The position numbers and the translations under genes were made by a program. DNA of 64,000 bases from Balanoglossus misakiensis (taxonomy: Eukaryota; Animalia; Hemichordata): the NCBI GenBank assembly GCA_040954595.2, contig CM082583.2:9995656-10059655 (forward strand), in the 5' to 3' direction. Positions 4,201 to 59,000 of the stretch are shown one piece after another. Within the stretch, counting starts at the first letter, position 1, and each line of letters opens with the position of its first letter. Under the pieces are notes generated by a model that ran no database searches, had not been told where the DNA came from, and saw only the letters and a program-made list of their open reading frames with translations.

Positions 4201-7200
4201 ATCTGCGGCAGCAGTTTTGCTCTGGTGAGTATCAGATCACGTGACCAATTGACCGCTCTCACGCATCATGTACAAGCACATCTGGTGTCGATCAAACACC
4301 AAGAGAGGCGCTGTTTGCCCGCCCAACCCTTCCTGCACGAAGTTAAATGGAAAGTGTACGGTCACCCGTGCAAATACTATGGAAAGTTGAGATTTAGCCA
4401 ATCACAAATTTTCGTAGGGTTGCCACGCGAAAAAAATGCTCCACCAAATAGCCATTCGAGTGACTTAGACACAGTGTAACCTTTTAACCATATATATACT
4501 AGTATACATGATTGTACATACGTATATGTTGAGGGAGATTGTATTCCTTTTACGAGTTGCAGCGCTATGTGTTGCAGCTTGAAGAGCAATGTAACTAGTA
4601 TTGCCAAATCTTCTTATTTACAGGTGTTTGAGGACGTTAGGCTAGAATACAACCCAACCATGCAAGCGGTTCTGAAATATCTCAACATATTTTTCGCTGT
4701 CGTGTTCACCATTGAAATGTTATTGAAATGGATTGGCTACGGTTTCGTCAAGTACTACACCAGTTTCTGGTGTTGGTTGGACTTCATCATTGTCTTGGTG
4801 AGTCCCCGCCCGGGTTTGTCATATGCAGATGAAAGCGCCATCTTCTGACATCAATGTTGTGGTTTTGTTTGTTTCGACGGAGAAGTCTGTGTATTGCGTC
4901 ACTAATGTACAGCAAGGCGTTCTGGCCCAGAGTTCGACGACGCTCTTGGTCTGCTGGAGTAAAACCATGCATATTTCTTGGTTTCTTTCTTCCAGGTATC
5001 CAACGTCAGTATAATAGCATCGTCTCTCGGTATGGACGGCCTATCAGCATTTCGGGCTCTGAGAACACTGCGTGCTTTGCGACCACTTCGTGCCATATCA
5101 CGCTGGCAAGGAATGCGGGTAATTATAATACATTCCATGAATCTTAGACTCCAGGTGCTGACGGAATCATCGTTTACTATTTACTGATCGAAAAGTTTCT
5201 CAACATTATCTGCATATATAAGGCAACAGAACTGGATGCTTGCCTTGGTGCAAAATTCAATGGCTGTTGGCATGACGACGTGGGAATAAGGTGCATCCAA
5301 TTCCCCTAACTCGCACAAACTATAAATGGTTCGCTTTTTGTTGCATTCAGATTGTGGTCAACGCACTGGTCCACGCCGTTCCCGCCATCTTCAATGTGTT
5401 GGTCGTCTGCATGGTATTCTGGCTAATCGCCAGCATCATGGGGGTGCAGTTCTTCGGCGGGACTTTCTACAAGTGCCTGGACGACGACGGGGTACAGTAC
5501 AATGCTTCCTTCGTGAACGATAAGGCGGAGTGTTTCCTGAATAATGGCACATGGAAGAACTCTGATATCAACTTTGATAACGTGTTAAATGGGTTACTTG
5601 CTCTCTTCCAAGTGGTACGTGGAACATTTTACTTTTTTTTTCTATTTCACCAAAGTACAAAAAAAGTGTTCCGGGAGTCGCCATTTTCGCTAATTTTCGA
5701 GAGAAAGATATCATGTAACGTCTGCCTAAAAGAAAGGAAAAAAAACTAACTGCGTGATGTATATGTATGAGAGGTTTTCCATGGGACCACGTATCTGTGC
5801 ACGAAAATTAATCATGCCAATTTATAGAATTTGACTAACTTGACCATTGTTTTTGTTGCTAGGCAACGTTTGAGGGCTGGATGGAAGTGATGATAGACAC
5901 TATCGATTCTAGAGGGGTAAGTTGAACACTTCAAAGGAGATCGTCACGTGATTAATATCAATTTATGATTGCTACAACAAGACCCCATTAGCTCGACTTC
6001 AGTCTCCCACTGTCGTCGAGCTAACGACCCATCAGGGAGAGAGACTTTCGCGGATGATTTAGACTTTATGTTTTATTTTATAATTTTTCTCAGGTGGATC
6101 TGCAACCAAGCCGCGAAGCATCCAAATATGCCTACCTCTACTTCTTCGTATTCATTGTCTGCGGCTCCTTCTTCAGTCTTAACTTGTTCATCGGTGTAAT
6201 CATCGACAATTTCAACGTTCTGAAGAAAAAGGTGAGGTGACTTCAATACGAAGTTTTAACATGTGTTAGCTCCCTCTATCGTCTTACAAGCAAATATCAT
6301 GGCAGATCATATTCTGAAACCAAACTGTCGCATATTATCCGATTGCAGTACGAGGGAGACAGTACGCTGGACATGTTTTTGACATCAAACCAAAAGAATT
6401 ACTACCAAACCATGAAACGACTCGGGCAGAAGAAACCATCTAAGCAAATCAAGAGACCAACGGTAAGCGATACCATGGTTACGATAAAGAAATCGAACTA
6501 TATAATTATTAATCCGCTGGGCGAATGGATTGATTGCTGTTCACTGGTGTGTGTGTTGGTTTTTCTCTAACTTTGTCGTCGAAGTTTGCCTTTTGTTTCA
6601 CATTTTGCTCAGCGTCGTCAGTTTTTGCGCTTGCCGATTGCTCAGTGTTTTTTGTCCTGATTTTGCAGTTTGATTTTTGCATGAAATTATCTGCCAATTT
6701 CCCATAACACATCCGTTTTCCTCATCCCAATTTTCCCTGCATGCTTACGTTATTTTGACTTCCGATAATTTTGCAGACTCGTGTAAGTAATCTGTTGTAC
6801 CACGTATTGTTTTCAACGAACAGGTGATTTTTGTCGCCTGCTTTAACACTCATGTAAAGAATATAAGATAGAATATACCGTGCTCAATGTTATTCTGGTA
6901 GCTATAGGTTGCAAATGTTTCCTGTCTGTGCAGGATCTAGGACTTGGCAAGGCAATAACGACACCGCACTTTTTTTTCTCTACGTAAACAGAACAAGGTT
7001 CAGGCGTTTTTCTATGACGTCACCACGAGTAATAAGTTTGAAATTTCCATCGTGTTGATGATCTGTGCAAACATGATTGCCATGGCCGTGGAGCACTACG
7101 GCCAATCAGAAGACATTACCGCCGTGCTGGATGTCCTCAACATCATATTCGTGGCCATATTCGCCTGTGAGTGCATCATGAAGATCATAGGAATGAGGTG

Positions 7201-8852
7201 GCACTACTTTAAGCGGCCTTGGAACGTCTTTGACTTCATCATTGTCCTGCTGTCCATATTAGGTAGGCACATTATCCCGTCATCCGGGTATCTTTGTCAT
7301 CCGCGCACGCCGGGGTGGGGCCCGGTTTCTTGATCGGTTGGCTTCGCCGATGTTTTGGTCCCTACTGTTATCTTATTATAATAGGCAGTTGACTTGAAAA
7401 GCAAAGCTTTCGAACATTATGGGTCAAATTGATCCAATCAGTAGCTTTGTAACATCAGTTTTTTTTATCTTTATTATCTTTTCAGGCATTGTTTTGGATG
7501 ACCTGCTATCAAATGTAGTCATAAGTCCAACGTTGCTTCGTGTCGTCCGCGTCTTCCGTATCGGCCGCGTGCTGCGTCTGGTCAAAGCGGCAAAGGGAAT
7601 CCGCAAACTGCTCTTCGCCTTGGTGATTTCCCTCCCGGCCCTCATCAACATCGGTGCTCTGCTCTTTCTGATCATTTTCATTTACGCCATCTTCGGAATG
7701 AACTTCTTCGGCTACGTCAAGAAAGAGGGCGCCCTCGACGAAATGGTCAATTTCGAGACATTTGGCAACGGCCTGATATTGCTGTTTCGCTTGGCGACGT
7801 CGGCGGGGTGGAACGACGTGCTGGAACCCCTGATGGTACAGCCGCCCAATTGCGACCCGAATTACAGGGGTATGCCCAACGGCAACTGTGGCCAGCCGTT
7901 GTTGGCGGTCCTTTATTTCGTCAGCTTCATCTTTCTGACGTTTCTGATCATCATCAACATGTACATAGCTGTTATTCTTGAGAACTTCACGCAAGCGCAC
8001 GCGCAAGAAGAGGTCGGGATTACCGAAGACGACTTCGACATGTTCTACATTGTGTGGGGTCGCTACGACCCTGTTGCCACACAATTCATCAAGTTCGAAC
8101 AGGTGTCCAAGTTCTGCGACGAACTTGACCCTCCCCTTCGCCTGGCGGCGCCCAACCGAATCAAAGTGACCGGTTTGAATCTCACCCTGTATGAGGGCGA
8201 TCGGGTGCATTGTCTCGACGTGCTGTCGGCGCTGACGAAGCGCGTTCTGGGCGAGGTGGAAGAGTCCGACGACTTTCAACAACTGCAGGAAGAAATGGCC
8301 ATGCGGTTCAACGAGTCGTTCACCATTCGCTCGCAGACGGTCGCCACTGAGACGACTTTGGAAAGAAAGAAGAAGGAAACTGCCATAGTGAAAATTCAGA
8401 AAGCATGGAGGCTTTTTAGACTGAAGCGAGAAATCGGCCGCGCCGCCTCGACGAGATCGAGAAACAGCCAAAGCAGTTTGACCAGCTCGCGCAAGAACTC
8501 GGCCCTGCTGAGCGTTGGCGACAGCAAACTGGTGAATTTAGATAATAGCTTTAACAGTTCGTTCGGTAACACACTGACAGTTCATCCCGAGAAATACGGG
8601 CAGAGCCCGCGCGGGTCCACCCCGTCACTGAACGCAAGCGGCCACAAGAAGCCGCTTCCCAAGATCGATAACACCAACGGCGCCGCGTCGAAGAAAAAAT
8701 CCACGGCCGAAGAAGAGTGGGACGACGTCCCAACAATTGAAGCTTCGGTTCAAATAGTGAACGAGTCGGCGAAAAATGTTAAAGACAGGCCAAAATCAAG
8801 CAAAGCTTTTCAGGAGAGGCCGAAAACTGGCAAAAAGGGCTTAAAGACATGA
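1276..8852 (+). CDS. Nav2: Voltage-gated sodium channel alpha subunit, Nav2 (DSC1/BSC1-like) clade; partial, DI-DII linker to C-terminus, domain I upstream of the window
   Basis: Phase-consistent GT-AG exons: 1276-1357, 1668-1948, 2166-2336, 2561-2929, 3059-3371, 3486-3646, 3808-4224, 4624-4797, 4996-5118, 5351-5614, 5863-5916, 6094-6231, 6349-6462, 6992-7262, 7486-8852 (TGA). S4 sensors: [51 protein letters not shown]. Pore loops: LCGEW (DII), ATFEGW (DIII), ATSAGW (DIV). DIII-IV linker DMFLT. C-terminal EF-hand-like region and IQ motif IQKAWR. Confidence 0.95.
6777..6782 (+). other. Candidate 6-nt cassette microexon (ACTCGT, Thr-Arg) in the Nav2 DIII-DIV linker intron
   Basis: TTTTGCAG|ACTCGT|GTAAGT. 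Consensus acceptor and donor, frame-preserving inside a phase-0 intron, with a pyrimidine/TGC-rich upstream intron. Confidence 0.6.
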
Positions 8853-25004: not shown

Positions 25005-28000
25005 CACATTATGGCACGGCTGGCTGCTCGAACTCGGGAACTCGCAGACGTGCCTATTCGTAACTGGCGTTGCGCCACTTCCCGTAAGGGGTGACTTCAC
25101 GTAAAACTTTCTACTGTTACACGTGTTGTCTCGAGTTGTTCACAATCATGTTACAAATCTAGCGTTGTAAGTGTCCTCTAAGGGGCAGATTAATGCTTGC
25201 GGAAGATCGGGTGATGTCTTGCCGTATGCCGGCACGTGAGGCACCTGACCCCACTCAAGACAAGAATCCGCGGCATTTGCGGCGCACTCAAATACGGGCA
25301 GTCTACCCACCGGTCAGTCGTACTATTGCCGGCATGTTTTCGCAATTCTAACCTCGTTTAGTGTAAACGAACACTGTGAGAAACCACCGCAGTCGCGATT
25401 CATGCCGACGAAATCACTACGCTGTTATGAATTGTGAAGTGGTGTTGTCTTACGCTCTCTGAGTGCGCCATACATATTCTGTGTTTTGACGCGTACTCAT
25501 ATGGCTGACCACACAAGTAAACACAAATATGAAGTCTATTTATAGAAACACCTGGAAGCGAATGCCCACAAGCACCTCCTTCCGCGGAAAAATTTTCAAA
25601 ATGTTCTATAGTATTTTACGCCGCAGAATCAACATGTCTGAAATGTGACCTCCGTCAAAATATTATTGCAATAATCCGCCTTTTAACTGAGAGATTGCCG
25701 TCTGCCAGATAAACAACCGTGGCTTTATCACGAAGTTAAAGATTCGATAAAAACGAGCGCTAAAGATTCGATAAAAACGAGCGCAACTGGCAACGTTCCC
25801 AAACACGCACGGCCTGTTAACGGGTTACATCACAGCTGCTATGTTTTCGACGATCGAGTTCCACGGCGTCGAATATTTTCAAAACAAATGAAGTTAACCA
25901 GATCTGGGCGCTACCATGACGAAAACTGTAAAACGGCATGTGTGAGAGTACGGATTGGTAATACGATACCGAATAAGTATAGAAATGTTTAAAAAGACGA
26001 CTCATTCAACCATTCGGCGCTAGAAATAGCTAGTGTATTTGTAGCGCTCTCACGTAACAAGACACATTCTTAAGATATTAGATTTTTTGGCATTTTAGAA
26101 ACCGCCGCCTTGTAGCTGGTCCGTTGAGTTTCACCTATTTGAAGTCTTTTGGTCACAGACCTACACTCTCTTGACATGTATAGACAAAGCAAGTTATCAA
26201 AATACACACTTGTGGTTTATACACACCACAGCCACTAAACGCCAACCACTCTTGGTTCTCAAAACAGATTAGAAAGTTTAACATACCACAACGACAAAGC
26301 TCTCACAATATAACCTCGGCCGTGTTTCTTGACACCATCATAAAAGAAGCGCTTGTTGACGTTTTTTTTCAAAATGTGGGGCTAGTATTTGTGTCGGTGT
26401 AAGTGCGACTAAGCTGCCGGTAGTAGGTCTTCATTGATAGCCACTATAAACGAGAAGAAAATTGGACGTGAAGTGAATATGCCAAATATGGCGAGCAATT
26501 ATTTGCTCTGACGTTATAACATGTCCCCGAAGGCACAAAAATTAACCAGGCTTGATCTGGTTGCCACTTGATTTGGCTGCGTGTTGGTGTTTACATTTTT
26601 GTTTCTCGTCACAGGAGACTCAGATTTATCTAAGTTCGATATTAGGGGTCAATGTTACACCGCCTTCTCTGAAAGAAGGCGATACAACCGACTTGTTTAC
26701 GTAATATTTGATAGATAAAACCTTTGCAGCGATGAGTGACATTAAACGAATTCGATGTAATTCTGGAAGCGTTCCGTGCGTGGTTTATCTCTTTATTGAA
26801 CTGACACTGGACATGACGACAGAATTGTTATCTTTTATGGCGCAATGAAAATTGACCAGCGTTGGTAGAACTTATCAGGCAATACACTGAAATACGACTT
26901 TGTGAAAGTGCAAATCTCAAAAAGTGTATTACCATTATAGATATCTAACATAAGTCAGAAACAAAATATAATCTCTGATACGAAAATGCTGTAAATGGCA
27001 TACAGGGCAGCTTTAAATGTTGATATCTTTCCGTTTCTCGCAGCTGGGCTGTGTTGGGCCCAAGTGTCCAAGGATGGAAGATGTGTCGGTCTCATGACGT
27101 CCAACGTCAGTCGTGACGAATGCTGTAGCAGCGGGGCGGTCGGCATCGCCTGGTCGAGGCAAGACGTGACGGCCAGCACTCTCTTCAAGTGGACCATCTC
27201 CGAACGGGGCGGACCTGGTGACTGCACCCCATGCCACGGTGAGTCATCGACAGGTGAGTAGTCAAGTGATGGAACCATGGAAACCACGGCCAAGGTGTCG
27301 TAGCGTGCTGCTTCTTTCCTCCACTAGTCAGTTCCTAAAACCACGTCGACCGCATCTTTCTTCCTTTTTTTATAAAAATGTTTTTTTTTTTACTATCTAA
27401 ATCGTCACGGTAGTTTTAAACTAAATCTAGATCTTGTCCTCTTAATAACTCTTTCACCACCACGGTTTGGCACGGTCCCATCATTTTCAGTGGTAAAATT
27501 TTCTCCGTATTTAGTCCCGCACGGGTGAAAGGGTTGAATAAGTATGCATGCCGCACAGCCTGTTGTGGGTACTATGTCCATCCACCGACTACTACAACTG
27601 TATTTACGTACACTACATGATTTTATTGACAAATACAAAGTGAATCTCGCAAGCAGTAATGTTCTAGTAGTGTCCGGAGAAACTGTTCTTTTGTTCATAG
27701 CTCTTTGTGTTGTCCTCATCAGCACTTTCTCGTTTTCTTGATTTCTGTCAGTAGACACTTGCGACGAGGTGGAGTGTGGACCGGGCAAGGAGTGTAAGAT
27801 CAGCAGCAGGGGAAAGCCACGCTGCGTCTGCTCGCCCAACTGCTCGCCTCTTTCGCGTCGAGGCGCAGTGTGCGGTAGCGATGGCAACACTTATCAAAAC
27901 GAGTGTCGCATGAAGAAAGCCAGTTGCAGGCGAGGCATTGATATCCAGGTGGCATACAACGGAGTTTGTCAGAGTACGTACACGCATCAGTTTATATAAT

Positions 28001-28013
28001 GATTCGTGGTGTG

Positions 28014-28081
<68 letters not shown>

Positions 28082-30000
28082 CTGAATACTCCAGTTTTTA
28101 CAACAATTCCTAACGTCACGTGATTTCTATCCGACAGCATCTTCTTGTGACGATGTCGTTTGCAGCGAGGGAAAGAACTGCGTGGTCGACCAAAACAACA
28201 CCCCGCACTGCGTTTCGTGTATGTTGGACTGTCCGTCTCCCGGTCCATTCGACATGGTGTGCGGGGCTAATGGCGTCACGTACGAGAGCCTGTGCCAACT
28301 GAGAGTTGCTACTTGTTTGTTGGGTAGGAGCATCGGCGTAGCGTACAACGGGGAATGTAAAGGTGAGTCCCAGCTTCTTAGACCGTCTGCCAGACACTCG
28401 TTGATGAACTTATTGAAAATTGTTTATCGTTTTAAAGGGAAGGGGTCGTCGCGCCACGTGGGTGTCCCCCTTGAGGCGAATATGTCCTCCCATACCAGCG
28501 CAAACCCCACTGCAGTCGCCACGACTTTTAAACCCGGACAAGCTACGCACTGATTTTAATCAAAGCAGAAACTTATCATTCTCCATAGACATCTGACAGT
28601 ACTGTCTTGTGTTCCCGTTCTGCCAGGTGCCCTGTCGTGCGAAACGCTCAGCTGTGTCCGAGGAAAAGAATGTCTAATTTCAGCAGATGGCGGCACGCCA
28701 AGGTGCGTGGACTGCCAACTGTACGACTGTGCCGACGACATCCCATTCGAAACAGAAGTCTGCGGTACGGACAATCGGACGTACACCAGCTGGTGCGAGA
28801 TGCGACTGAATGCTTGCCACAGGGGAATAATCATAGAAACACAGTATTTTGGAAAATGTCAGGGTAAGTGAACGATTCTTCAATCTGAAGGCTTTCACTG
28901 GCGGGTCTCGTTTGAACGTGGACGAAGAGCCAAGGCTAATTTTGACGGCCTTTTGAGAATAATTCGTTGCACTGATTAACGCCACGTATAACACGCATCT
29001 GTTACGATAGTTTAAAGAAAATGTAGACTATATATACTTGTTTTAACTATTTTTAGGTAAATTCAAACCAGTCTCTCGAAAACACACATGCTGATAACGG
29101 AATGGCCAAAAAAACATAAAACCATTCGGTAAGAACATGCATGCGTGCATGGCTAATTTTTGTGCACGATTTAAGCTCACAGAATGATAAGAAAGCTCAG
29201 CCAGCAGCATGCTATACCTGACCCCCTCCCCCCCCTCTCTCTCTCTCTTCTTTTGTGGACAGAGTTGCAACACCATTAGTGACCGATGGGAACCATCTGT
29301 CACGCGTGCACGGTGACCGTCGGATGGGGCGGCAGACTGTCACTAAAATCATCGCCTGTTTCACCTTCACTCGCGATCGGCGCGCTCTGCATCGTGTTAG
29401 TTTTACAAATGTCCATGCTAGACAATTCAGGCGAACGTCAAGAGTGAAGGACATCCGAAAATTACATAGAAAAACGCGTTTTGCATGCACGTTGCCTTGT
29501 GCCTGCTTAAACGTCATTTTACAAATAATGATGGTTGTCGCGTAAAATGTTCAACAAAAACTCAACTAATACAGTAAAGTTAGTCGCTTGTTGCCATGTA
29601 TGTGCTTACAGATCACTACATGGGGCGAACTGATGGCATCCGTAAACGCTAACGCCATACATGCATGCATAGGAAAATATCATTCACAAGCGAGTGTGGG
29701 TAATACTTCGTTATGTGTAACTGTTCGAATTTTGTGTAACTTTTATGATCAGGTGGCGACAACGAACACGTGTCACTGCCCAACGACACGCAAGAGGCAA
29801 AATCAACGGAGCTCAACTCTGGGGAAGGCGTGATAGAGGAAGGTGCTGTTGACTGGCCGGGCAACAGTGGGTTTAGCGAATACGAGGAAGAAGACTGGCC
29901 ATTCGGCAAGGTGTTTGAGAGTGAATACATTGAGACACTACCTGACAAAATGGTGTACACGTCGCTCGAGGAACTCGAACAATTAATTCGGAACTCGTAA
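19527..30000 (+). CDS. FST: Follistatin, ~400 aa: signal peptide, N-domain, three follistatin (EGF+Kazal) domains, acidic C-terminal tail
   Basis: Exons 19527-19605 (signal peptide MKAVSSSGCCLAMLLVIIAANCTLGQ), 27044-27238 (GLCWAQVSKDGRC...ECC, like vertebrate GNCWLRQAKNGRC), 27755-27973, 28138-28362, 28627-28863 (three FS domains with VCGSDGNTY, VCGANGVTY, VCGTDNRTY), 29753-30000 (acidic tail EYEEEDW, TAA). All introns are phase 1, one domain per exon, as in vertebrate FST. Total 1203 nt. Confidence 0.93.
24840..25002. repeat. GA-rich degenerate microsatellite ending in a pure (GA)n tract, in the long follistatin intron
   Basis: Purine-rich GAGA/GACA repeats with an uninterrupted (AG)n run at ~24971-25001. 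Confidence 0.85.
25737..25784. repeat. Perfect 24-bp tandem duplication
   Basis: TAAAGATTCGATAAAAACGAGCGC twice (25737-25760, 25761-25784). Confidence 0.9.
28015..28080. repeat. (GAT)22 trinucleotide microsatellite in a follistatin intron
   Basis: Uninterrupted GAT repeat inside the intron 27974-28137. It explains the poly-M and poly-I ORFs in the track. Confidence 0.95.
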
Positions 30001-31591: not shown

Positions 31592-31709
31592 GGTTAGCAG
31601 TGGGGTTAGGTATAGGGTTAGGGTAGGACTGTATTTAAAATGACCAAGTGAAAGTGATTTAGTTTTGTTTAGGTATAACCTACGCTTACGCTAACCCTAA
31701 TGCTGACCC
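31592..31709. repeat. Imperfect inverted repeat made of telomere-like TTAGGG/CCCTAA units, possibly a degenerate MITE
   Basis: GGTTAGCAGTGGGGTTAGGTATAGGGTTAGGG (from 31592) faces CCTACGCTTACGCTAACCCTAATGCTGACC (to ~31709). Confidence 0.5.
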
Positions 31710-31886
31710 CGGCCATAGTCCAAGGCCACTCGCCTTGCAGTAACTATCAGTACCCTCATGCATATGCGCGTTCAGTGCCAGGAGGTTGGCTGCTAGATCC
31801 TTTGCCTATTGGACAGTCACATATTTATGCAAATCATCACGTCATGTTTGCTTTACTTGGCTTCGTTACGTTTGTCCTCATCAGCC

Positions 31887-33210
31887 ATGGCTGCTAAGGG
31901 CGATTTTCTCCAAGACAGGGCCTTAACTTTGAAGATAACCAAACGCCTAGCCGAGGTGATGGACAGTGAAGACTTTCAGAGACAGCACCTCGATGCAGTT
32001 GACCCGACCAAAGGAGATATCGCGAAGTTACGAGAAAGGGTGCGACAACTGCACGGCAGAGTTTTTCAGGGCATCCTTGATGAATTCAATGCCGTCTACA
32101 ACGGAGAGCACATAAACGCAGTGCATAAGTACATTCTCCGCGCGTATGCCGATGACCATGAGGTGAGTTGGTCGCGTAATAATTTCATTGGAGCTATAAA
32201 TAGAGACAATCGGCCGGGGGGGAGGGGGTAACAGCCCCAATCATGAGCCACCTTCTTTCGAAGCGGATAGTTTCTAATTTCACAATTTATTGCGCTTGTC
32301 TTTCAGATTCAAACAGTACTCGCTAAGACTGTCGTTAAAGAGAATGCCACCGATAAAGCCATCGAACTGGGAATACCCGTTCCGGAAATTTCTCTGGTGG
32401 ACGTGGAAACACGACAAGATATTCCCCTGCTGAGTCTCAGCACATCTGTGGGCAAACCACTGGCTTTCATAGCATCTTCGTTATCCTGACCTCCGCTGAG
32501 GGTAAGAGGCACTTTCCAGTCATGAAAGGAGTCGGTTTTTGTGCGTAACCAGGTGCTACCTTCGACCGCCTATATATAAGCACAGACATGTCCATTTGAT
32601 GTGTTTATAACTCTGGTTGTTTTACCATCTTTCTCCTCCAGGCCATTGTTCACAGTGGCTCGCTGAAGAAACTTTATGAAGACTACAAGGACAAAGTGGA
32701 CATCTGTATGGTTTATATGCGGGAAGCTCACGCCAAAGGTTCAAATCGGGAGAGAGGTCCTCACTACAGTATGATTACTCAACATCAGAATTTGGAAGAT
32801 AGAAGCAACGCAGCAAAGTAGGTTGCTAGGGGAACGGTTTTTATTCTACGTACTGAGCACACTGACTCCCCATATAAAATATATTCGCTGAGATCGAAAG
32901 GTTGTTCATCTTCCACTTTAAAAACTGAGCAAGAATACTATAATTCTTTTCTCTGCGCAGGATGCTGATTGAAATGGACCCCGAGTACGAAACCTTCACG
33001 AGTGACATCCGAGACACCGGCAAAGTGCGCATGGTGCTGGACAACATGGGTAATGGTTTCCATGTCAGTTTCGCTGCCTTGCCGGACAGGGTTGTCGTGA
33101 TTGAAGACAAGAAACTGGCGTTCCTTGGCGCTCGCATCGACGAGCAAACCGGGCTGATGACAGACGAGCTCCGCTGTTGGCTTGAAGAGCGATTTCCTAT
33201 CAAGGATTAG
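31887..33210 (+). CDS. Divergent iodothyronine deiodinase-like selenoprotein (~298 aa, Sec153) with a soluble N-terminal C10/C12orf57-like domain
   Basis: Exons 31887-32162 (Kozak GCCATGG; an alternative in-frame ATG lies at 31827), 32307-32501, 32642-32817, 32961-33210; total 897 nt. In-frame TGA at 32487-32489 in KPLAFIASSLS-U-PPL (DIO consensus RPLVLNFGSCT-U-PPF). Further DIO motifs: VYMREAH, QHQNLEDRSNAAK, VLDNMGN, FAALPDRVVVI, ELRCWLEE. A SECIS follows downstream. Confidence 0.88.
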
Positions 33211-33317
33211 GAATGGGGTATAAAATAGTGTAGGGTTTTAAAACATGGGGTCAATTCCTTAAAAATAAATTTTAAACTGGATATAGAAGTTGCAATATTT
33301 ATACACACGCTTGATGT

Positions 33318-33400
33318 GGACATGATTGGCAATATGATGACGTTTGCATGTAAATGCGTGTGCCATGCATGACTGAGTGTTGAAACATTGCCACCTGTCC
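33318..33400 (+). promoter_or_regulatory. Eukaryotic SECIS element (type II-like) in the 3'UTR of the deiodinase-like gene
   Basis: ATGA (33337-33340), then 11 nt, AAA (33352-33354), and TGAG (33374-33377). Helix II: GTTTGCATG/CATGCATGAC. Helix I: GGCAAT/ATTGCC, extended by GGACA/TGTCC. Apical mini-stem GC-GTGT-GC. Confidence 0.85.
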
Positions 33401-34075
33401 GACCATCATTATTGGAACGATTAGAACTATTTTAGGACAATATTGTATGTTAGGATGACTTGGCAGTCTGTATATACTCAGTAGACAATGTAGTACACGT
33501 ACTATACGTACCCGTTGTTTTCCAAGTTATCTTAATGGTTGAATTACATTCTATATTCTCCCATTGTGCAACGAATACTACTCATTTTGTTAAAATTTGA
33601 ATCGTATGCAATTATCCCAAAATATTTTCAATCATGAGTGTAAGAAAATCGTGCATTTGGTGTCAGTGAGCAAATTTTGTACAATGGAATGTATTCATAA
33701 TTGTTGTTGTCTAATGATGCTAATACCAGCTAGTCAAATATAAAGTGTACAATAAAGTGCGTGTAGACAAAAAACACTTTCAGTGTTTGAATTTAGGCAA
33801 CGGTGCAGGGAACACTCTCGCTGAACACGTAGTCAAGAGAAGATATACATTCTCGGCAAACTACAAAGTGCGGGCCTAGGTTTTGACCGGGGTTTGATTA
33901 TGGCATGCACCCCGGAGTCCCATCTTCTCCCGCCAAGGTCTTGCTCTCCGAAAAGTAGCAGGGAGACCGTCGTCGAGCCAACGACCAGTACCTTGACGAC
34001 GATGCCTCAGTGGTTAGGCCCAACCTAAGAAAGCGCCCTCAACGTTGACACGAAATTGAACTCCAAAGATCCAAG

Positions 34076-35551
34076 ATGGCCTCTCAGCTTTCAGCTTCTG
34101 TCCGAAGTTGTTCCAGTCTTTTACGTTCTGTTAACCCATGCAGGTAAGTGCAGATTATCTGTTGAGATGTAATTATCGAATATGGCCTGTTTGTTTCTTA
34201 CATGGGGAAATATAATGATAATCAATGCAATATTTAAGTAAAACTGCACGGTAATAATATGACAACCCGTGGCCTCGACCACAGGCACAGCCTGACACAG
34301 GCTAGGCACTCGTACGTTGACCCATGTATGTAGTGTAGTGTACCAGATTATCTCAAGATTTCGATGATATAGAACTCTCTAACATATATTTTGTTATTCC
34401 AAATAGGACACTATTTGTTTCAAGTGCACGCTGTGTGGAAGAAAATGTCGAAGCTAAGGCATTAGAAGAGGTGAAGGACACCGTACCAGTAAGTACATTT
34501 GCCTTTTCCCTACAGACCGGTCTGCTTGGGCAACCGACCATTTCCAATGTTTCTGAATATGACTCATATTTTTTTAAAGGTCGACATGACTCCAGTGTCT
34601 GTGATATCTGGCATTCCAGAGGAACACATCAAAACCAGAACAGCCAGGATTTTTGTGCCAGCCATGAACGCTATGCAGTCGGGCAGCAACAACACACACA
34701 AGTGGGCCATTGAGTTTGAAACCAGAGAGAGATGGGAAAACCCCCTGATGGGATGGTCATCAACGTAAGTTTGCTGAGAGCGGGTCATGTCGGGTCAGGT
34801 CATGTCATCTTGCTAAACAGTGTTTCACCTTGGAAAACTTCTGCCAGGATTGTGCAGTAATTTTACGGGGTCCCCTTCCAAAGCTGTTAATGTTAGTGGA
34901 TAGCAGCAAGGCTACCAGAGCTCCCAAACTATTCATATAAGTGCTGGTGGTCTAAAAGTCTAAGCAAAAACATCACCAACTTTTTTTTGCTTATGAAATA
35001 GTGAATAGGTGATGTTGGGTTGAAAGAGTGTTTTCCTGGAAAAAGTGAAATTCAGCATTGGCAATAATAGACGTACATACTTTCCAACAGGAGTAAAGAA
35101 AAGCCCATGTTCTTGCTGTGCTTAAAACTTGCTCATTTTATCTTTTCTCCGTTCCTTTCCTCTAGAGCTGACCCTCTATCAAATACTACGGTAAAATTTA
35201 ACACCAAAGAAGCCGCCATCCGCTTTGCTGAAAAACATGGTAAGGAATGTAAACTAGAACATATATTAACCCTTTCACCCCCAGTTCCCTCTTTAGAGGT
35301 CCAACCTTACCATAGAAAACAATGGGTTTGGACTGAACCATGGTGGTGCAAGGGTTAAATTTCTTGTATGATTGTCATGTCATTTGACTTTGTGTCAGTC
35401 AAAATGTGTGCAATAGTGTGACAAAGATGTATATTGTGTTCCCACAGGGTGGAGGTATGAAGTGGTGGAAAAACAAACACCTAAACCGAGAGCAAAGTCA
35501 TACGGAGCGAACTTCTCCTGGGACAAGAGAACAAGAACCCCATCCAAATAA
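34076..35551 (+). CDS. NDUFS4: NADH:ubiquinone oxidoreductase subunit S4 (18 kDa), ~170 aa
   Basis: Exons 34076-34143 (Ser/Arg-rich transit peptide), 34407-34488, 34580-34764, 35166-35239, 35448-35551; total 513 nt. Motifs: [58 protein letters not shown]. Confidence 0.96.
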
Positions 35552-50090: not shown

Positions 50091-53000
50091 CCTGCTTTAA
50101 TACTGAAAAATTAAATATCTACTAGTGATGTGAAACATTTATGCTATTAAAAATCATTGCAGAAATGGCCACTGTACTGAAAACAGAAATGCCAAATGCA
50201 TACTCTACATAATAATACTATATCAGACTACCAAGAAATTGAAAATTAACGGTTTTATGTATCCTGTATACCCTCATTCATAAGAATTCATTTTTGAGAA
50301 GTCAGTAAAACTGTCCACGAACAGTTTTTATTGGTATTAGTGACGCAAGTTTCTAAATGGATGTATTCATACCAGCTGAAAAGCTCTTGCACGATTTACC
50401 ATTTATTAATATAGCAATGATATTGTTTAGTGTTCCGTAATAACAGTTTTGATAAAGTGAGTTGCACACGTTTGTACATTTGCTGCAGTGACTGGTACCT
50501 GTAAACTCATCTCCAATATTTGCGTAATGTATTTAGACCATTTTTATTATGCGGCACCTGTTGTACCACATAGATGTGTTGGTCTCATCTATTTTCCTCT
50601 GGGAATTTTCAGTTGTGTGTACGCATGTACACACCAGGTTCCTTGGTGGTTCATTTCAGTTGTTTAATTTCCTGGAAGTCTGTACGATTGACATCAGAGC
50701 TGATTCTGCGAAATCGTACCAGGATTAAACTGATTCTCCCAAAGCCTTCATCGTGGATGAAATATCTGATGTAGAAAGACACTGTTGTTGTTTTTTTGCT
50801 GTCTTTGTACTTGGAGAAAACATCAATTTCAATTTTCTGTAGATCAAGATTGCCCTGGTTAAGCACAGGTTCAATGCCACTTTTCGCTCAATTTATTTTT
50901 TTGTGGCAATTTGTATGGTATACGACAGTAATCTTTAAAATCTAAATAATTCAACCTTTATTATAGATGATTAACCACTGATTCATTTGTAGAGATGATA
51001 TTTCTTGGAATCTAGGGGTATGCGTAATGATATGACTTGGCTATGCTAATACTCATGATACTGACAGGTGTGTAGAGGAAATGAAAGTATAGATTTTAGA
51101 GATGAAAACAGCCGAACAACAGCCTGACTGGCCATGAACTTGTCTCACTTAACAAAACATCCCAGAAGAATAAGCAACACACCCTTTTATTGTCAGCAGA
51201 GTGAGTGATGTGTGTTGTGTCTTCATAGCCACCACCTTCCTCTGTTGTTATTATTTTATTTCTGGCATGTATTCGAAAACTTTGATGGTAAAGTTGATGA
51301 CTTGCCAGATGAATTTGTTTTCATGTACATGTATGTTCTCAGGATGATCATTCATTCATTCACACTTGCTGTTTACTAGTGCAAGCTCAGTCAGTTTATA
51401 CATTACCCATGATGCAGTGGGTAATGTGTCTTGGGACAGGACTTGGATCAGACTCCTGCATCATGCCGTTTGCAATTTATATTATACATCTTAGTATTAA
51501 ATATTCAGAGCAATTAGACATACTTGTACTTAAAAATGAAAATTCTTTTCATCATGTTAATAGCAATATACGGTTATTATCAGCAGACCGAAAATGCAGA
51601 CACAGACATTTAAAGACATACACGACAAAAGTGTACCCAGAAAGTTTAATCATGTGTAATGTTTTTTGTCTGGATTTCTGGTGAAGCTTAAAATGATAAA
51701 CTTGTTTTTTATTCTAATAAGTGTGTGCTGAGGTCTTATCTGATGCACCAGATGAGCAGTGATGTGGCAGATATTTTCCTTGTTTGTTAAAAACTTAGCA
51801 TGATCATCATTTCCGTGTACATTTGGTGTTCCAAAAATCGGTGTTTGGTAGCATGGTATTTGCTGATTGCTGTGTGAATAATGGTGGCTGTTGTAGTAGT
51901 GACTCAGAATATTTTTTTTCAAAACAAGGATGTAATTACCAACTCGGATATTAAGCTGGGTCGAGATGGGAAGGGAAATATGCATGGATGATCATTGTGC
52001 GACTGAGTTGAAAAAGATGCACACGTACTCTATTTGTATAACCGTTTGTATTTGTGCGGTTGACAAGATACACGGCACCAAATCACACTGTTATTACTGC
52101 ATTCCTCAGTCACCAGCCACTGAGAACGGTTGCCAGGGGTTTTCTCAAGCCCCGGATTTCATCCCTCGGATAAGTGCACTGGTACCCTGGCCGGTTAATG
52201 AAGTAGTTCCTGCACATATTGATAATGTTGTCAGCCAGTGAAAGAGAGACAAGAGAGAGAGAGAGCCGAGATCATCTCGCTGGCATGCTGCTGTCAGTGT
52301 GATATGTTAAAATTAGCCAGGAGCCAGGTATTATTAAATTCCAGAAGATAACAATGTTGACCAACCACTCGGATAAGATCAGATATAGATAGAATGACTC
52401 TTGATCTACTAGTAAGAACATAATGGTAATGTTACCTTGCTTGTAAGCCTCATGATGTTGTGATACTGTGCATCTGCAGTTAAAGTCGCGTTGTCATGAT
52501 TATGTATTAAAGATGCATTGTCATAGAAGTTGAAATTAGCAGAATTGCCTTTTGAGGATTTACTGAAGTCATATACACATGCTGACATGTCAGATGAAAA
52601 CAACAATTCCCGCTGCTATTTCTGGCTTCAGTAAATGAACCCACACTGTGAAACTTTGAATTTGTCCCATTCATTTAGAAACATCAAATACTTATATGTA
52701 TGGCTGCAGAAGTCATGTGATAGCTGTAGAAAACATTTACTCACATGCTTTTGTTTCGTACAAACGTTAGTAGCGTTTAGCTTTTCTGCTTTGTAGCAAA
52801 GCAGTTCAACACGGGCTTGGTCCACTGCACAGCCAAATTCCTCCCTGGTTCTTTTGTTATGCATGTATTTATGTGTTTGCTATAGTCTATTGTTGCCAGT
52901 TTATGGTATGTCGTCTTTAAGTGTGTCATCGCCAAAAACACATCCATCCATCCATCCATAACAATTTAGTCACGAAACAAGTTTTCTGTCGACAACACAT

Positions 53001-56000
53001 CCTCCACTTGTTACATTCAGATTATTAAAATGAATGAGTCATGTGTTGAAACCTATTTGTTGTCATACGTTTACGTTCTGTCTAGGTACATATGTACAGT
53101 GAGCGTCATTGTTTTGGACATACAGGCCAATGGATGCCCCTATGCATTGTGTCGGTGATCACTTGAACTTCCTCAGTTCCTGGCTAATTCAAATGAAATA
53201 TGTTCGGGTTGAGTGGGACTCAGGAATGCTTTAGTGTAGTAAAGTGAAAGTGGGTAAATTTTGAATATCGTAAACTGTAACCTGAGGTTTATTGAAAGGC
53301 TGTCCTCAATTTTTTTGGCTCTTACCTGATATTTATTATTCAGAGAGCAACCAGCAAATTGCAGAGCTGGGTAGTAATTACCGTAAGATTTGTTTATATC
53401 TACATGTAACTTGTTCTGTACTGGTAGATCTGATAGCAGTACAGAGCTCATTAGGCCAGTTGTGGCGTATACACTGTTGGAACTAAATAAGTGACTCTGT
53501 AATGATCCAGTTACGACTCAATACATCCGACAGTCTGCTTTGCTCTCTGGATAAATTTGTGAGCTTTTTGCTGTGCCTTGCATGGACACACAACAGTGGA
53601 ATTGTTTATTGTAATTAAGTTGTGAGGGGGATTGCATAAGACTACATTGTATTGAATTTGTGTGTCACTGTGTGTGTGAGGTTTAAAACCAGTGAAGTGA
53701 AACTGTAGTGTGTAGAGGTTGAGTCTAGACCCATGGCTGTGACAGTGCTCCAGAGTCCAGACTGAAGGTTGTCTCGCTTTGTTGAGAGTAGAGTCTTTTT
53801 TTACTGTCTCAATGAGCTGATAGCATCAAAATATTTTAAATTCTAGCTATTGACCCTGTGTAAGCATCACTTTTAGGATGTTATACACTCGGTGTGGCCG
53901 TATGATTCGAACATGTAACACGGTCAAGCATTGTGAGTCAACTTTACTTACATAATTTATATTCTGGAAATCACACTCATTATTGATGGAATGATTAAAC
54001 ATTGCATAGTTGACTTCCATAATTGTTCCGTCATTAACAATCACTCTGGCTGAGATATTAATGGAGAGAGTGGCCGGCAACGTCTATCGTTCACCTGGAT
54101 TGATTGTTCCCCAATTACAGAAATTTAATTTCCATAATGAGACATACAGCAGCCTGCTAACAAGTGGTGTTTTTTTAATTTGCATTTATTGGAAGAGTTT
54201 GCAAATTTGACCCGGCGTAGACTCGGGTCAAGGGATGGTACTGAGAATAATGGATGATTCGTCAAGTCTCACGGGGATTCACGCCGGTGTAATTGATATT
54301 CCAGGGAAAGACAGTGCCTGCCGGAATTGGTTGGCCACTGTGTCCTGAATTGCCATAATAATCGAGTACTCTGTGATCTTTAGTCTGTGGTTTTTTTACT
54401 CTGCGGTCTGATAAATATTTTATGGCGACTTGTGATCGAAAATTCTGTGCTGCAGTCAGGAATTGTCTCTGCTGGTGAATTCCGGGGGTTATATGGCAGG
54501 GTTTTAGTTTATAGGGAAATGCTCGTCGGGAGAGTTTTGGAAAAGCCGTGGTTATCTCATCAACACAGGAAAATCATCACAGGTATTTGTACTTTGCTAC
54601 TGTTCGTGTCAGGGAACGCAGCCTGCGGTGGAACTGAAGCCAGAAATTAAACGGCGATCAATTTAATCGTGGAATTGGAGGATTTTGACCCGAAAGTACA
54701 TGCTGGGTATGCGTGTGCGCTCCGATTGATAAACGGAGCTGTTAAACGAAGCGTACATAAATGTGTGCATTTCAGCAGCTTTGAATTCTGAACAACGCGC
54801 CGTGTGATAGATTTCAGTGTGGTGAAATGTGATCACCTTTGGGTTGGGGCTCAGGAAATGAGATCTTTAAGTCGGGTTGAATTAAGACGTTGCGTGGCTA
54901 ACATTGACACTAATGGTTTTCAGAGACAATGGGAAGTGACATCAATTTCTTGCGGTGGAATTGTTGGTGATTGTGGAACAAACGGTCATTAGTTTTATAA
55001 GAAAAATGAGGATTGTGTGTGAACAGAGCGATAAAAAAAAGAATGATTGGATGGCGATTGAAAGTCTGTTAGATATCTCAGATATAATTGTATGATGGAT
55101 GAATCAGTAATTAATACATTATCAGTATGAGTAAGAATTATATCTTTATTGCCAATCACTCAATAAGATGATAGAGTTAAATTAAAAGAAAACATATTTT
55201 GAAAAATATGAGACAAAACCTATTTTATGAAAGATCACTTTCCTGAAAAGAGAAACAGCAACTGATCATTGCTGGAAACTATGATTCAGTCTGCAGGAGT
55301 TATTTGTTTACTATGTAGAAATAATTTTTCAGAAAACTGTTTGATTTTATCATTTTGCGGGTGTTATTTATTACCTTTGTAGAAATTATGTTATTTACCT
55401 GTATGCTTTGCCATGTCTGAATCAGAGAGTGCAAACAGAAAAGCAAGTGTGTCGCCTTTTAGTTCAACATTAAAAAGTTAGCAAGCCACTTGAATGTGCC
55501 TACGTGTATGCTATTTCATTTGATAGAGAGCCCTGTTGGAGTAGTTGAATGCGTATTGGATCTTCATCCATAATACTGCGATAGTTTTTTTACTTCCTAT
55601 AAAATGACAAGTATTGGCCCGCTGTGATTTGTATGTGCACATTAAATCTTTAGTGATTTAAGTCCATTTCCCAATATTGTCATGAATTTTGCCTTAAAGT
55701 AGCTTCTATCTGATCATAGTTTTCTGTCATTCAGAGATTTTATGAGTTGCCGAACAGTTGACAGAAAAAAACCCCAAGACTACGTTTGATTATGTTTTGC
55801 TGGTAAGGACGTCTAGAATGGGTGTTTTTCATGTCTCCCTGACCCTGATCTGGATCACAGCAGACGTATCAGATCTTTCGCCAAATCAGACGCTGTCACC
55901 GGATGGATCGAATCCTCACTGATGTTGTGGCAGTCACTTTATATGCAAACTTATTGATTTGTCATTACACACGTGTATTGTCAATTCATTCAAAGGCAGG

Positions 56001-59000
56001 TCAGGGTGTTCCTAATTCAATCAGGCCAACCTATACACTGTGTCAGGCCTAGATCTGTCTTGCAGCTGTTAGTTTTTGTGAACCCAAAATCATGGGATAT
56101 CCCCTGCATGTCTGTATTCCTGTCAGGTGAGGTTGGGGGGGGGGGGGGAGGGGGGGGGGTTGGGCGGTATAGACACTGGCACTCCACGGGGAATCACTCC
56201 ATCCATGGTGACACTAAAATTGTCCGGCATATACACAAGGGGGGGGGGGGGGGCAATATAGAAATATCCACTCATCATCATCATGGATCACCTATTCTGT
56301 GACAGATTATAAACATGACTATTTGTTCAGCCGTGTTCTCCACAGAGCAGTTAATTAAATAATGTTGGCCACTACCATTTAATAGAAACTCATTAACATA
56401 ATTGATTTCGTTGTTCTATGCAAATTAGCCAATAAAGGGATAAAAAATGTGGGGAGAACACTGCTGTATTGTCTTGTGGCTTTTTTGTTCTTGCTTTAAC
56501 ATTCCAAATTTCAATTTATTTAAATTCTGATCCAAGCGCAGTATGGTGTGAAACATGATGTGGTGTTGGTCAACATTTGTAGGAAAAACGATGAAAGTAA
56601 ACTCTTTCTTATCATTTCTGAAGTTTCCAATGCTCCATGAAATTTTGAAGAGCTAAAGTAACATCCAGAAAGTTGTTCCCGTTGAAGTGACAGAGAGAGT
56701 CTCTTTGTTGGTGTTTCTGACAAGTTTCTAGTGACAGCCCAAAGAATTAATGTAGTGGAACCGAAATTAATAATTTGAATAGGAGTTAGAGTTGATTAGC
56801 ATTTAGAAGGTTTGTGCAAATGAACAATGGTGGGTGAAATTAAGCTTGACAAGGAAATATATCAAACAATGACAGGCTTGTACATATAGCAACTCAGACA
56901 GTCCCCTGGGAATTGACGATATCAACTTACACGGAACTTGGCATTAGAAGCAGTTCTGCAAAATATGAACCGACATTTAATTAAAAAACCATTTTGATAA
57001 TTTGATTAGCTATTAAAGTACCTGCTACCTGTCACTTAGGAAATAATTTGCTGTAATTGTTCGGCTGATTTGTGATCATGTGAGGATTTTTTGTTTTTAC
57101 CTCAAACCAAAATTAAAATTATGAACATATCTTTTTAGCTTTTAATTTAAATTTAAATTTCTTTTTCAATTATCTGCCACATTAATATCAGCTCATACTA
57201 AAGATTTCCCAGTCTGTATATAAGCTTCATGCAGTACAAGCACTGATGTGGGGACAATCCAGTTTTCCGAACTTTCACCACAGTACCGGATTATACAATT
57301 TTAAATAGAATCCATAGTATACTGTCTGTCACTCACAGGATCTGAATACTTCCATCCTAAACAGCTGTTACTAATCAGCAAGCAGCGTTTACAAGGCAAT
57401 ATCTTTTGGTTTAGATAGGTTAAACCCTCACCTCACTGCCAACGAATTTTTTGTCACATAAACACAACAAATATTTTATTTACAGGAATGAATGATACTG
57501 TTGGCAATAAAACTGTTTGTAATAAATGCAAGTCAGCGTCTCAGATATTCAATAAGCGACAACACCTAAATACAACAATGTAACTACAAAATGTCATGTA
57601 TTCTGATTTTTGCAAATAGGCTGAAAGTCATGGCCAGATTATTGTAAACAGTAGGATTACACTCTGAGTTTGTGGCAATTGATTTCACTATCACCAGTAT
57701 TTGAAGCCCCAATAAAAATTGAAAGATATATCTGTTTGGGGATTTTGTGAATTAATAATGTTATACCTGTAATCCTTTCACCACTGTGGTTCGATGCAAT
57801 GTAATTGTTCTCGGAGGCAATTGTTTGACCTCTCAACAGAAGGGAAATTGGGTGAACAGGTTAACCTTTCTGCCACTCAGGTGAGCTGTGGCCAGCGGTG
57901 AGGTTAGACGTGTCACGCTGGGAAATCGGTTTAAGAAGTAGCAGGGTTTTATTTATGTTCGGTTGGATTTCTTGGTAATGACGCTCGGTGGTAAACCATA
58001 AATCATTGAACAGGGTAAGGGGAGCGTCTGTACCGGTAGACATTGTCTTGATTACTTTTGTCTGGTAGAAATACTGGTATCATTTTCGCTTATTGACATT
58101 CTGATTAAATGTGACTCACAGTGAACCACTTTGACTAGGCCCGCCTGAGTATGATGGTGGGATAATGACATAACTGCTGTCTTGAAGTCACGACAAAATG
58201 ATCTTACATCTGCGAGCTGGTTGAGAGCTGTGTGCATAGGCGACTATTAGAGTGGTTTTTTTTCAGTGAGCTAAATGACATGGCATGATCTCATATTGTG
58301 TATACTCAAAGCAAATTCAAGATATCTTCGTTGGACTTCAAGCAAGGGACAGAGTGTTTACGAAATGTACCAGGTACAGACTGATTGGTCTGTGTCACCA
58401 TAGTAACTGCCAAGTGTATACAGAGACAGTGCGATCAAGATGACCTTGAGTTTCAAATCAGTGAATTTAATTAGAGTGTGTAGTGTTGAGACAAGGACTT
58501 ACATGTCTGGCTGTTCTGAAGTGCTGTGTCTCAATATCTGACGCAAGGAATGTTACTGTTTGACAAGAAGCAATCAAGGGATTTCTGAGTCACACCTCCT
58601 TTCCCCTTGGTGGCCAACTGATACCATGCGCCTCAAAGGGTAATAAGAAGACTGTTTTGTTCTCCAGTTTGCGTGAGCAGTGCTGCTGATGATATTCGCA
58701 CGTCAATATCAGGACTGTCTTGTTCCCTTTGTGTTTTCCTCTCCCCATGCACACATGTGAAGACAGGGTCAGCTGATATCAGCCAGACAAGTCCGTCTCA
58801 CTCTTGAAGCCCTGTACATGTGCAGTGTATATGTACACCCATTGGTAGACTCACAGCTTGCTGAGGATGCTGGGTAGTACAGCTATGCACCATGGGAGTT
58901 AAAGCTGTGTGGGCAATGATGATGATGATGAGTGTCCGGGTTCGCACAGCTCTTGTACAAGGTCACGTGACCCACCCATCGAGAGCAGCCTGTTATGTGC

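Follow-up and report, generated by a model that had tools for sequence, protein, structure and literature searches.

A predicted deiodinase-family selenoprotein with a hydrophilic helical N-terminal domain in the acorn worm Balanoglossus misakiensis

The window, by which we mean the whole 64,000-nucleotide stretch of Balanoglossus misakiensis DNA that was analysed, is intron-containing, animal-type DNA. On its + strand lie a four-domain voltage-gated sodium/calcium channel gene (1553-8852; several Ion_trans exons and a GPHH/IQ tail), follistatin-like exons with FOLN and Kazal domains (27757-28700), and an NDUFS4 gene (34075-34765 and onward; Pfam NDUS4, E 2.1e-16). A gene of the deiodinase family (PF00837), also on the + strand, sits between the follistatin-like gene and NDUFS4, and the latter is a useful synteny anchor for the orthologous locus. 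Three further features of the window were recorded. A perfect (TGA)22 microsatellite occupies 28014-28080 in an intron of the follistatin-like gene. An inverted repeat at 31602-31710 (24-nt arms, 79% complementary, with a 61-nt spacer and degenerate TTAGGG-like units), found as a single copy within the window and about 180 nt upstream of the start codon of the deiodinase-family gene, is perhaps a small mobile-element remnant. The region 52000-64000 shows a sustained positive GC skew of 0.08-0.17 per 2 kb, and the long frames tested there gave no Pfam match.

The deiodinase-family gene consists of four exons with 897 nt of coding sequence, corresponding to 298 codons, and all three introns have GT-AG borders. 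Exon 1 (31887-32162, codons 1-92) encodes a hydrophilic helical N-terminal domain without a transmembrane segment. Exon 2 (32307-32501; 195 nt, phase 0-0, codons 93-157) contributes the last helix of this domain, a peroxiredoxin-like N-terminal module and the strand leading into the catalytic codon. Exon 3 (32642-32817) carries Y182, E185, H187 and H205, the deiodinase proton-relay/substrate network, and exon 4 (32961-33210) the C-terminal half of the thioredoxin fold, with the TAG stop ending at 33210. The PF00837 catalytic domain is recognisable from the last two exons: exon 3 matches the Pfam T4_deiodinase profile with E 1.3e-7 and 31.6 bits (cut-off 27), and exon 4 with E 4.1e-6 and 26.7 bits, slightly below that cut-off. 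Against the PDB, exon 4 finds mouse Dio2 (9H48, E 5.1e-4) and Dio3 (4TR3, E 0.026), the latter also being matched by a relative from another acorn worm, Ptychodera flava (E 1.4e-6). Exons 1 and 2, each scanned alone against Pfam, gave no match, exon 2 being too diverged.

The sole internal stop in this 298-codon frame is a TGA at 32487-32489, codon 153, in the context S-L-S-[TGA]-P-P-L, and it is followed by 145 sense codons. The original prediction placed this TGA exactly where deiodinases carry selenocysteine and described a frame that stays open for 145 codons with deiodinase motifs; both points hold, as codon 153 falls in the column where 30 bacterial homologues have U or C, and the frame is intact to the TAG with Y-x-x-E-A-H and the other motifs present. 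For this alignment an HMM was built from all 30 bacterial PF00837 loci fetched, and the gene model, its codon 153 replaced by X, was compared with it (E 5.9e-21). The X falls on the catalytic position, where 26 of the 30 loci have TGA and the remaining 4 have Cys. Exon 2 alone, in one comparison against an HMM of 16 of these loci (one of them in the wrong frame), gave E 1.7e-4. The same register of codon 153 follows from the human DIO1 peptide printed in a passage of PMC9141512. Among the bacterial loci (L115-L144), three Cys forms, L121, L130 and L136, come after a long N-terminal region that is hydrophobic.

The named relatives of the protein all come from P. flava, and their catalytic domains are about 60-68% identical to its own. 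Five distinct RefSeq proteins were retrieved, and the residue of codon 153 is absent from every one, a concrete annotation failure that fits the earlier expectation that automated pipelines would truncate or split such genes. XP_070569326 (149 aa) spans exons 1 and 2 and terminates at the residue preceding codon 153; the first Met of XP_070570159 aligns with codon 156, three codons past the TGA; in XP_070570157 and XP_070571174 exon 3 directly follows exon 1; and XP_070571175 departs from exon 2 some 22 codons into it. Selenoproteins are commonly misannotated, according to the accessible part of PMC13134290. The P. flava models independently confirm the exon 1-2 and 3-4 junctions. Identity is similarly high on the two sides of the codon, at 38/60 before it (XP_070569326) and 94/139 after it in the best case; in four P. 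flava sequences, 86-94 of about 138 residues after codon 153 are identical (62-68%). The ends and skips of the P. flava models, together with this flanking identity, are what a second species would be expected to show if it, too, had a stop codon at this site, and the pattern points to purifying selection on both sides of codon 153. The P. flava stop, known there from protein ends and not from DNA, would then be a TGA. By accession, the P. flava family counts at least four RefSeq loci, all on one 44.0-Mb contig, and the best reading is a small, lineage-restricted and expanded acorn-worm gene family.

The same models raise another possibility, namely that the main product skips exon 2, giving 233 residues without the catalytic residue, and that the selenocysteine form is minor or switchable. 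Skipping would keep the frame (195 nt, phase 0-0), and two of the five RefSeq proteins join exon 1 to exon 3 while a third leaves exon 2 early. However, exon 2 is conserved like the rest of the gene, two other RefSeq sequences hold parts of it, and its loss would remove a strand and the start of a helix from the thioredoxin fold; stop-avoiding pipelines, moreover, would be expected to make exactly such models. We thus regard exon-2 skipping as a quite improbable account of the main product, and we return to a product that includes codon 153.

Decoding of this codon requires attention to the 3' UTR, where a predicted type II SECIS, identified by pattern and folding energy, lies at 33327-33393 on the + strand, 117-183 nt past the stop. 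Helix I (33327-33333/33387-33393) has seven Watson-Crick pairs, the core (33337-33341/33374-33377) has ATGA at 33337 and TGAG at 33374-33377, and helix II (33342-33350/33364-33373) has nine pairs with one bulge; an unpaired AAA (33352-33354) follows the ATGA by 11 nt, and an apical mini-helix of two pairs assigns the hairpin to type II. In the spliced mRNA, the UGA and the SECIS are 564 nt apart, which exceeds the minimum spacing of 51-111 nt quoted in the accessible text of PMC3753652. The claim that this SECIS is well formed stands in part: it passes the default and loose SECISearch1 patterns and the energy filter, but no Rfam model recognises it, and its core ends in UGAG. With the SECISearch1 patterns re-implemented from the supplement of PMC3753652, the default and loose patterns are satisfied at 33337/33375 and the strict one fails in that register; the stem-2 rules of SECISearch3 that are applicable by hand are also satisfied. 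None of the Rfam SECIS families scores the hairpin, either at the gathering score or at E up to 10. The core consensus is given as UGAN/KGAW in the part of PMC3753652 at hand, and the core here, UGAC/UGAG, keeps the GA/AG tandem and has G instead of A/U as its last base, so that KGAW is departed from.

How often such a hairpin would arise by chance depends on the measure. Without energy, the default pattern fires in 131 of 2000 shuffles and the loose one in 489 of 2000, and the default pattern has 7 sites in the window. The hairpin is nonetheless the top-scoring of 80 primary-pattern matches over both strands of the whole window. Among 5000 dinucleotide shuffles of the 570-nt 3' region, none equals the hairpin's own scores, a threshold derived from the candidate itself, and 11 pass a looser energy filter that was fixed. 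The stability of the unconstrained fold is indistinguishable from shuffles (z 0.04), and in the free fold a competing upper-stem hairpin is favoured by 0.3 kcal/mol. Two other sites pass the loose energy filter, at 7014 (+) in the ion-channel coding region and at 25500 (-), and they are taken as chance. A proximal AATAAA (33264-33269) stands between the stop codon and the SECIS and, if used, would yield a SECIS-less mRNA; 21% of base shuffles of the 115-nt stretch also contain one, and thus it is plausibly a chance occurrence. A distal AATAAA (33751-33756), past the SECIS and about 320 nt before the start of NDUFS4, is likely the polyadenylation signal that retains the SECIS in the mRNA.

It is at this point that a true nonsense codon must be weighed, which would make the locus either a pseudogene or the source of a truncated protein of 152 residues. 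XP_070569326 is annotated as ending here with 149 residues, no Rfam SECIS is recognised, and the proximal AATAAA precedes the hairpin. Against these observations, there is no second stop or frameshift in the following 145 codons and the splice sites are intact; the downstream identity to four P. flava sequences is 62-68%; the stop falls on the one codon where homologues carry Sec or Cys; and a SECIS-shaped hairpin of this quality is rarer than 1 in 400 shuffles. A true nonsense codon is thus very improbable. We propose that the UGA at codon 153 is very likely decoded as selenocysteine by recoding of the SBP2/eEFSec type, a prediction from the alignment and the hairpin together. Recoding alone is ordinary, as it adds one further member to a known selenoprotein family.

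Failure of recoding may have a consequence for the mRNA. A stop codon more than 50-55 nt upstream of the last exon junction leads to nonsense-mediated decay. The original prediction held that the last junction lies more than 50 nt past the UGA, and by our measurement it lies 188 nt after the TGA, with the next junction only 12 nt after it. Under the 50-55 nt rule, failed recoding would trigger decay, and the mRNA would be NMD-sensitive whenever recoding fails; the accessible part of the review PMC12936836 holds no passage on NMD of such mRNAs.

The N-terminal region is the second unusual part of the protein, and its reading depends on the start codon. The ATG at 31887 sits in a GCC-ATG-G context, and all four homologues with a whole N-terminal domain start at a Met matching it; across these four, 36-48 of about 88 residues of exon 1 are identical. 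From this ATG, no transmembrane helix of the Dio type is found: the domain of about 100 residues is hydrophilic, with a top 19-residue hydropathy of 0.18 in the first 100 residues, and six homologues stay at or below 0.45 over the same span. An in-frame ATG upstream (31827-31886, + strand), in a weak context, would lengthen the protein by 20 residues whose hydrophobic core resembles that of a signal peptide, the 11-residue mean hydropathy of this extension being 1.92 and the 19-residue mean 1.34. It is conceivable that translation starts there and that a 20-residue signal peptide before the helical domain directs a secreted or luminal protein; the frame and the hydrophobic core agree with this. 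However, the start context is weak compared with GCC-ATG-G at 31887, and the homologues begin uniformly at the downstream Met, which makes secretion improbable. We propose that the protein is probably soluble and cytosolic, the membrane helix being replaced by the helical domain, as modelled from the start at ATG 31887.

AlphaFold predicts exon 1 as a confident four-helix bundle (pLDDT 82.8), and a fifth helix is contributed by the start of exon 2. A search of 1.84 billion representatives with a profile built from exon 1 and two P. flava N-termini gave only three matches; two are P. flava proteins, and the third is a gene call of 92 residues on an ENA contig of 614 bases. No C10 protein was retrieved among these representatives, and the profile found no match in 16 bacterial deiodinase-like reading frames. 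In the ESM Atlas, where scores under 0.9 are leads only, clusters of P_C10 (PF14974) rank first both for the window exon (0.84, 193/256 shared features) and for a P. flava member (0.83, 166 and 187/256 shared features), although the two query family members are only 42% identical to each other, and P_C10 makes up all ten of the best named matches. The top structural match, 'Protein C10 (Fragment)', has a TM score of 0.68 over 100/100 residues, with a runner-up at 0.45 and predictions on both sides of the comparison; 13% of the members of its cluster carry PF14974. The Pfam P_C10 profile (PF14974) matches none of the five whole N-domain sequences, in a search whose speed filters drop weak matches, and when C10 sequences were sought in bacterial genomes, the PF14974 family was present in 0 of 5 and in 0 of 401. 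Weighing the predicted fold and the shared features, we lean towards a diverged protein C10 (C12orf57) fold for the N-terminal domain. The 'Protein C10 (Fragment)' cluster has 62 members and a length of 307 residues, near that of this protein; if its other ~200 residues prove to be a thioredoxin/deiodinase domain, such fusions would be more widely spread.

The active site retains the elements of the deiodinase proton relay. In human DIO1 numbering, S150 corresponds to Ser123, S152 to Thr125, Y182 to Tyr153, E185 to Glu156 and H205 to His174, and H187 corresponds to the His two residues after Glu156; the Ser before Sec, the Tyr, the Glu and the two His are all present. The accessible passages of PMC9141512 give Ser123, Tyr153, Glu156 and His174 as the Dio1 relay, and report that Dio1 requires a hydroxyl at Sec-1, with T125S near wild type. 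Both the window gene and the P. flava proteins retain the deiodinase motifs Y-x-x-E-A-H, second His and A-x-P-[DE]-R, except that in one P. flava protein the Asp of the last motif is replaced by Val. The Pro at Sec+2 is the Dio2/3 state and is tied to PTU resistance, as stated in the part of PMC11592359 seen. At the same time, the active-site motif is degenerate, ASSLS-U-PPL vs GSYT-U-PPF or GSCT-U-PSF; loop D lacks the Trp and Pro found in vertebrate enzymes, and an insertion of 12-13 residues precedes the next strand. The proximal Cys is replaced by Leu and the distal Cys is missing; the only cysteines, Cys179 and Cys288, lie at neither position and are not conserved in P. flava. The degenerate motif, the loop-D losses and the insertion imply that the activity or the substrate may differ.

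These losses suggest another identity for a genuine selenoprotein, in that the enzyme may be a general, peroxiredoxin-like thiol/selenol oxidoreductase, or a redox sensor with a partner-binding helical domain. The degenerate motif and the loss of the loop-D residues and of both resolving cysteines agree with this, as does a weak Redoxin match in a P. flava relative (E 0.11), and C12orf57 is reported to bind a kinase in the passages of PMC11838199 at hand. However, Y-x-x-E-A-H, the second His and A-x-P-[DE]-R are deiodinase-specific and all kept, and we consider an oxidoreductase or sensor unlikely. The deiodinase reading is preferred: judged by the residues kept and lost, the halogen-abstracting chemistry is probably retained, while recycling and the substrate pocket are probably different.

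On this basis, we propose that the locus holds an intact, Sec-decoded gene for a soluble 298-residue selenoenzyme that removes iodine or bromine from aromatic rings, to which we assign a probability of roughly 65%. In the proposed mechanism, the predicted SECIS in the 3' UTR would direct Sec insertion at codon 153; the selenolate would attack the halogen on the aromatic ring, as in Dio1-3; and S152, Y182, E185 and H205 would relay a proton, with H187 helping to hold the ring. As neither the proximal nor the distal Cys is present, the task of reducing the oxidised selenium would fall to a free thiol or to a partner protein. Catalysis like that of Dio1-3 followed by such recycling is likely, by analogy with the known enzymes. 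The helical domain may stand in for the anchor, with a putative dimer-stabilising or partner-binding role; the anchor of Dio2/3 stabilises the dimer and is dispensable for catalysis, as far as the accessible part of PMC11592359 tells.

As to the substrate, the odds are about even between native halogenated phenolics or indoles and molecules of the iodotyrosine/iodothyronine type. Fish deiodinases are reported to debrominate PBDEs (a passage of PMC7144113), and enteropneusts accumulate halogenated aromatics (abstract of PMC6315191); taken together, these make a native organobromine substrate plausible, if speculative. A bolder version, in which an expanded family of cytosolic fusions between a C10-like domain and a deiodinase core turns over acorn-worm bromophenols and other organohalogens, is doubtful in its entirety; if true, an animal selenoenzyme would be acting on natural organobromines, and the C10 fold would be seen for the first time as part of an enzyme.

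Deiodinases sit in membranes and are difficult to purify, and the structures solved so far show truncated cores. With a selenodeiodinase that naturally has no anchor, dimerisation and substrate binding would become easier to study in a full-length protein. Human C12orf57 underlies Temtamy syndrome, and if the N-terminal domain has the C10 fold, the protein would provide a second biochemical setting for the domain behind this disease. If the substrate is an organobromine, animal selenium biology would be tied to the halogen chemistry of acorn worms.

Compared with Dio1-3 (PF00837; 4TR3, 9H48), which are built from a transmembrane helix, a linker and a core (accessible part of PMC11592359), the protein shares the thioredoxin-fold core, the catalytic-site UGA, the SECIS-shaped element in the 3' region, the hydroxyl at Sec-1, the Ser at Sec-3, the Tyr/Glu/His/His network and, with Dio2/3, the Pro at Sec+2. 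It differs in having a hydrophilic helical domain of ~100 residues and no transmembrane helix from the likely start, and in missing the distal Cys of all isoenzymes, the proximal Cys of Dio1 and Dio3, and the loop-D Trp/Pro; its motif is ASSLS-U-PPL, and it has the 12-13-residue insertion. Multi-copy Sec deiodinases with SECIS elements are documented in invertebrates, including amphioxus, Trichoplax, Lottia, Capitella and the mussel (McDx/McDy), in the accessible passages of PMC3473315 and PMC8481496. The acorn-worm family resembles these as a multi-copy Sec family with a SECIS; however, theirs are described there as having a highly conserved active centre, and the passages on invertebrate deiodinases in these two sources mention neither hemichordates nor an extra helical N-terminal domain. 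The accessible part of the hemichordate genome paper PMC4729200 yielded no relevant passage.

Of 401 genomes sampled within one bacterial phylum, 51 have a PF00837 match. Bacterial deiodinase-like selenoproteins share U-P-P after the catalytic codon, the lack of a proximal Cys, an Arg/Lys in Y-x-R-E-A-H and a similar family-HMM score; in contrast, the introns and the eukaryotic SECIS here are not expected in bacteria. The N-terminal domain, as modelled, is similar to protein C10/C12orf57/GRCC10 (PF14974), its top Atlas match by features and predicted structure, in being small, all-helical and of ~100 residues. C12orf57 occurs as a separate protein, shows no homology to known proteins and binds CAMK4, according to the passages of PMC11838199 available. 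Unlike protein C10, the domain here has no Pfam profile match and is fused to an enzyme. Bmp8 of marine bacteria is a soluble, cysteine-dependent reductive tetrabromopyrrole debrominase that has been likened to deiodinases, and its likeness to the present protein is a functional analogy only. A deiodinase that is anchor-free, cysteine-free and fused to a helical domain was not found in the open-access literature, the pair C12orf57 plus deiodinase lying outside that search. The novelty would thus reside in the architecture: judged from its sequence, the anchor-free, cysteine-free, helical-domain-fused form appears to depart from two of the features that define Dio1-3.
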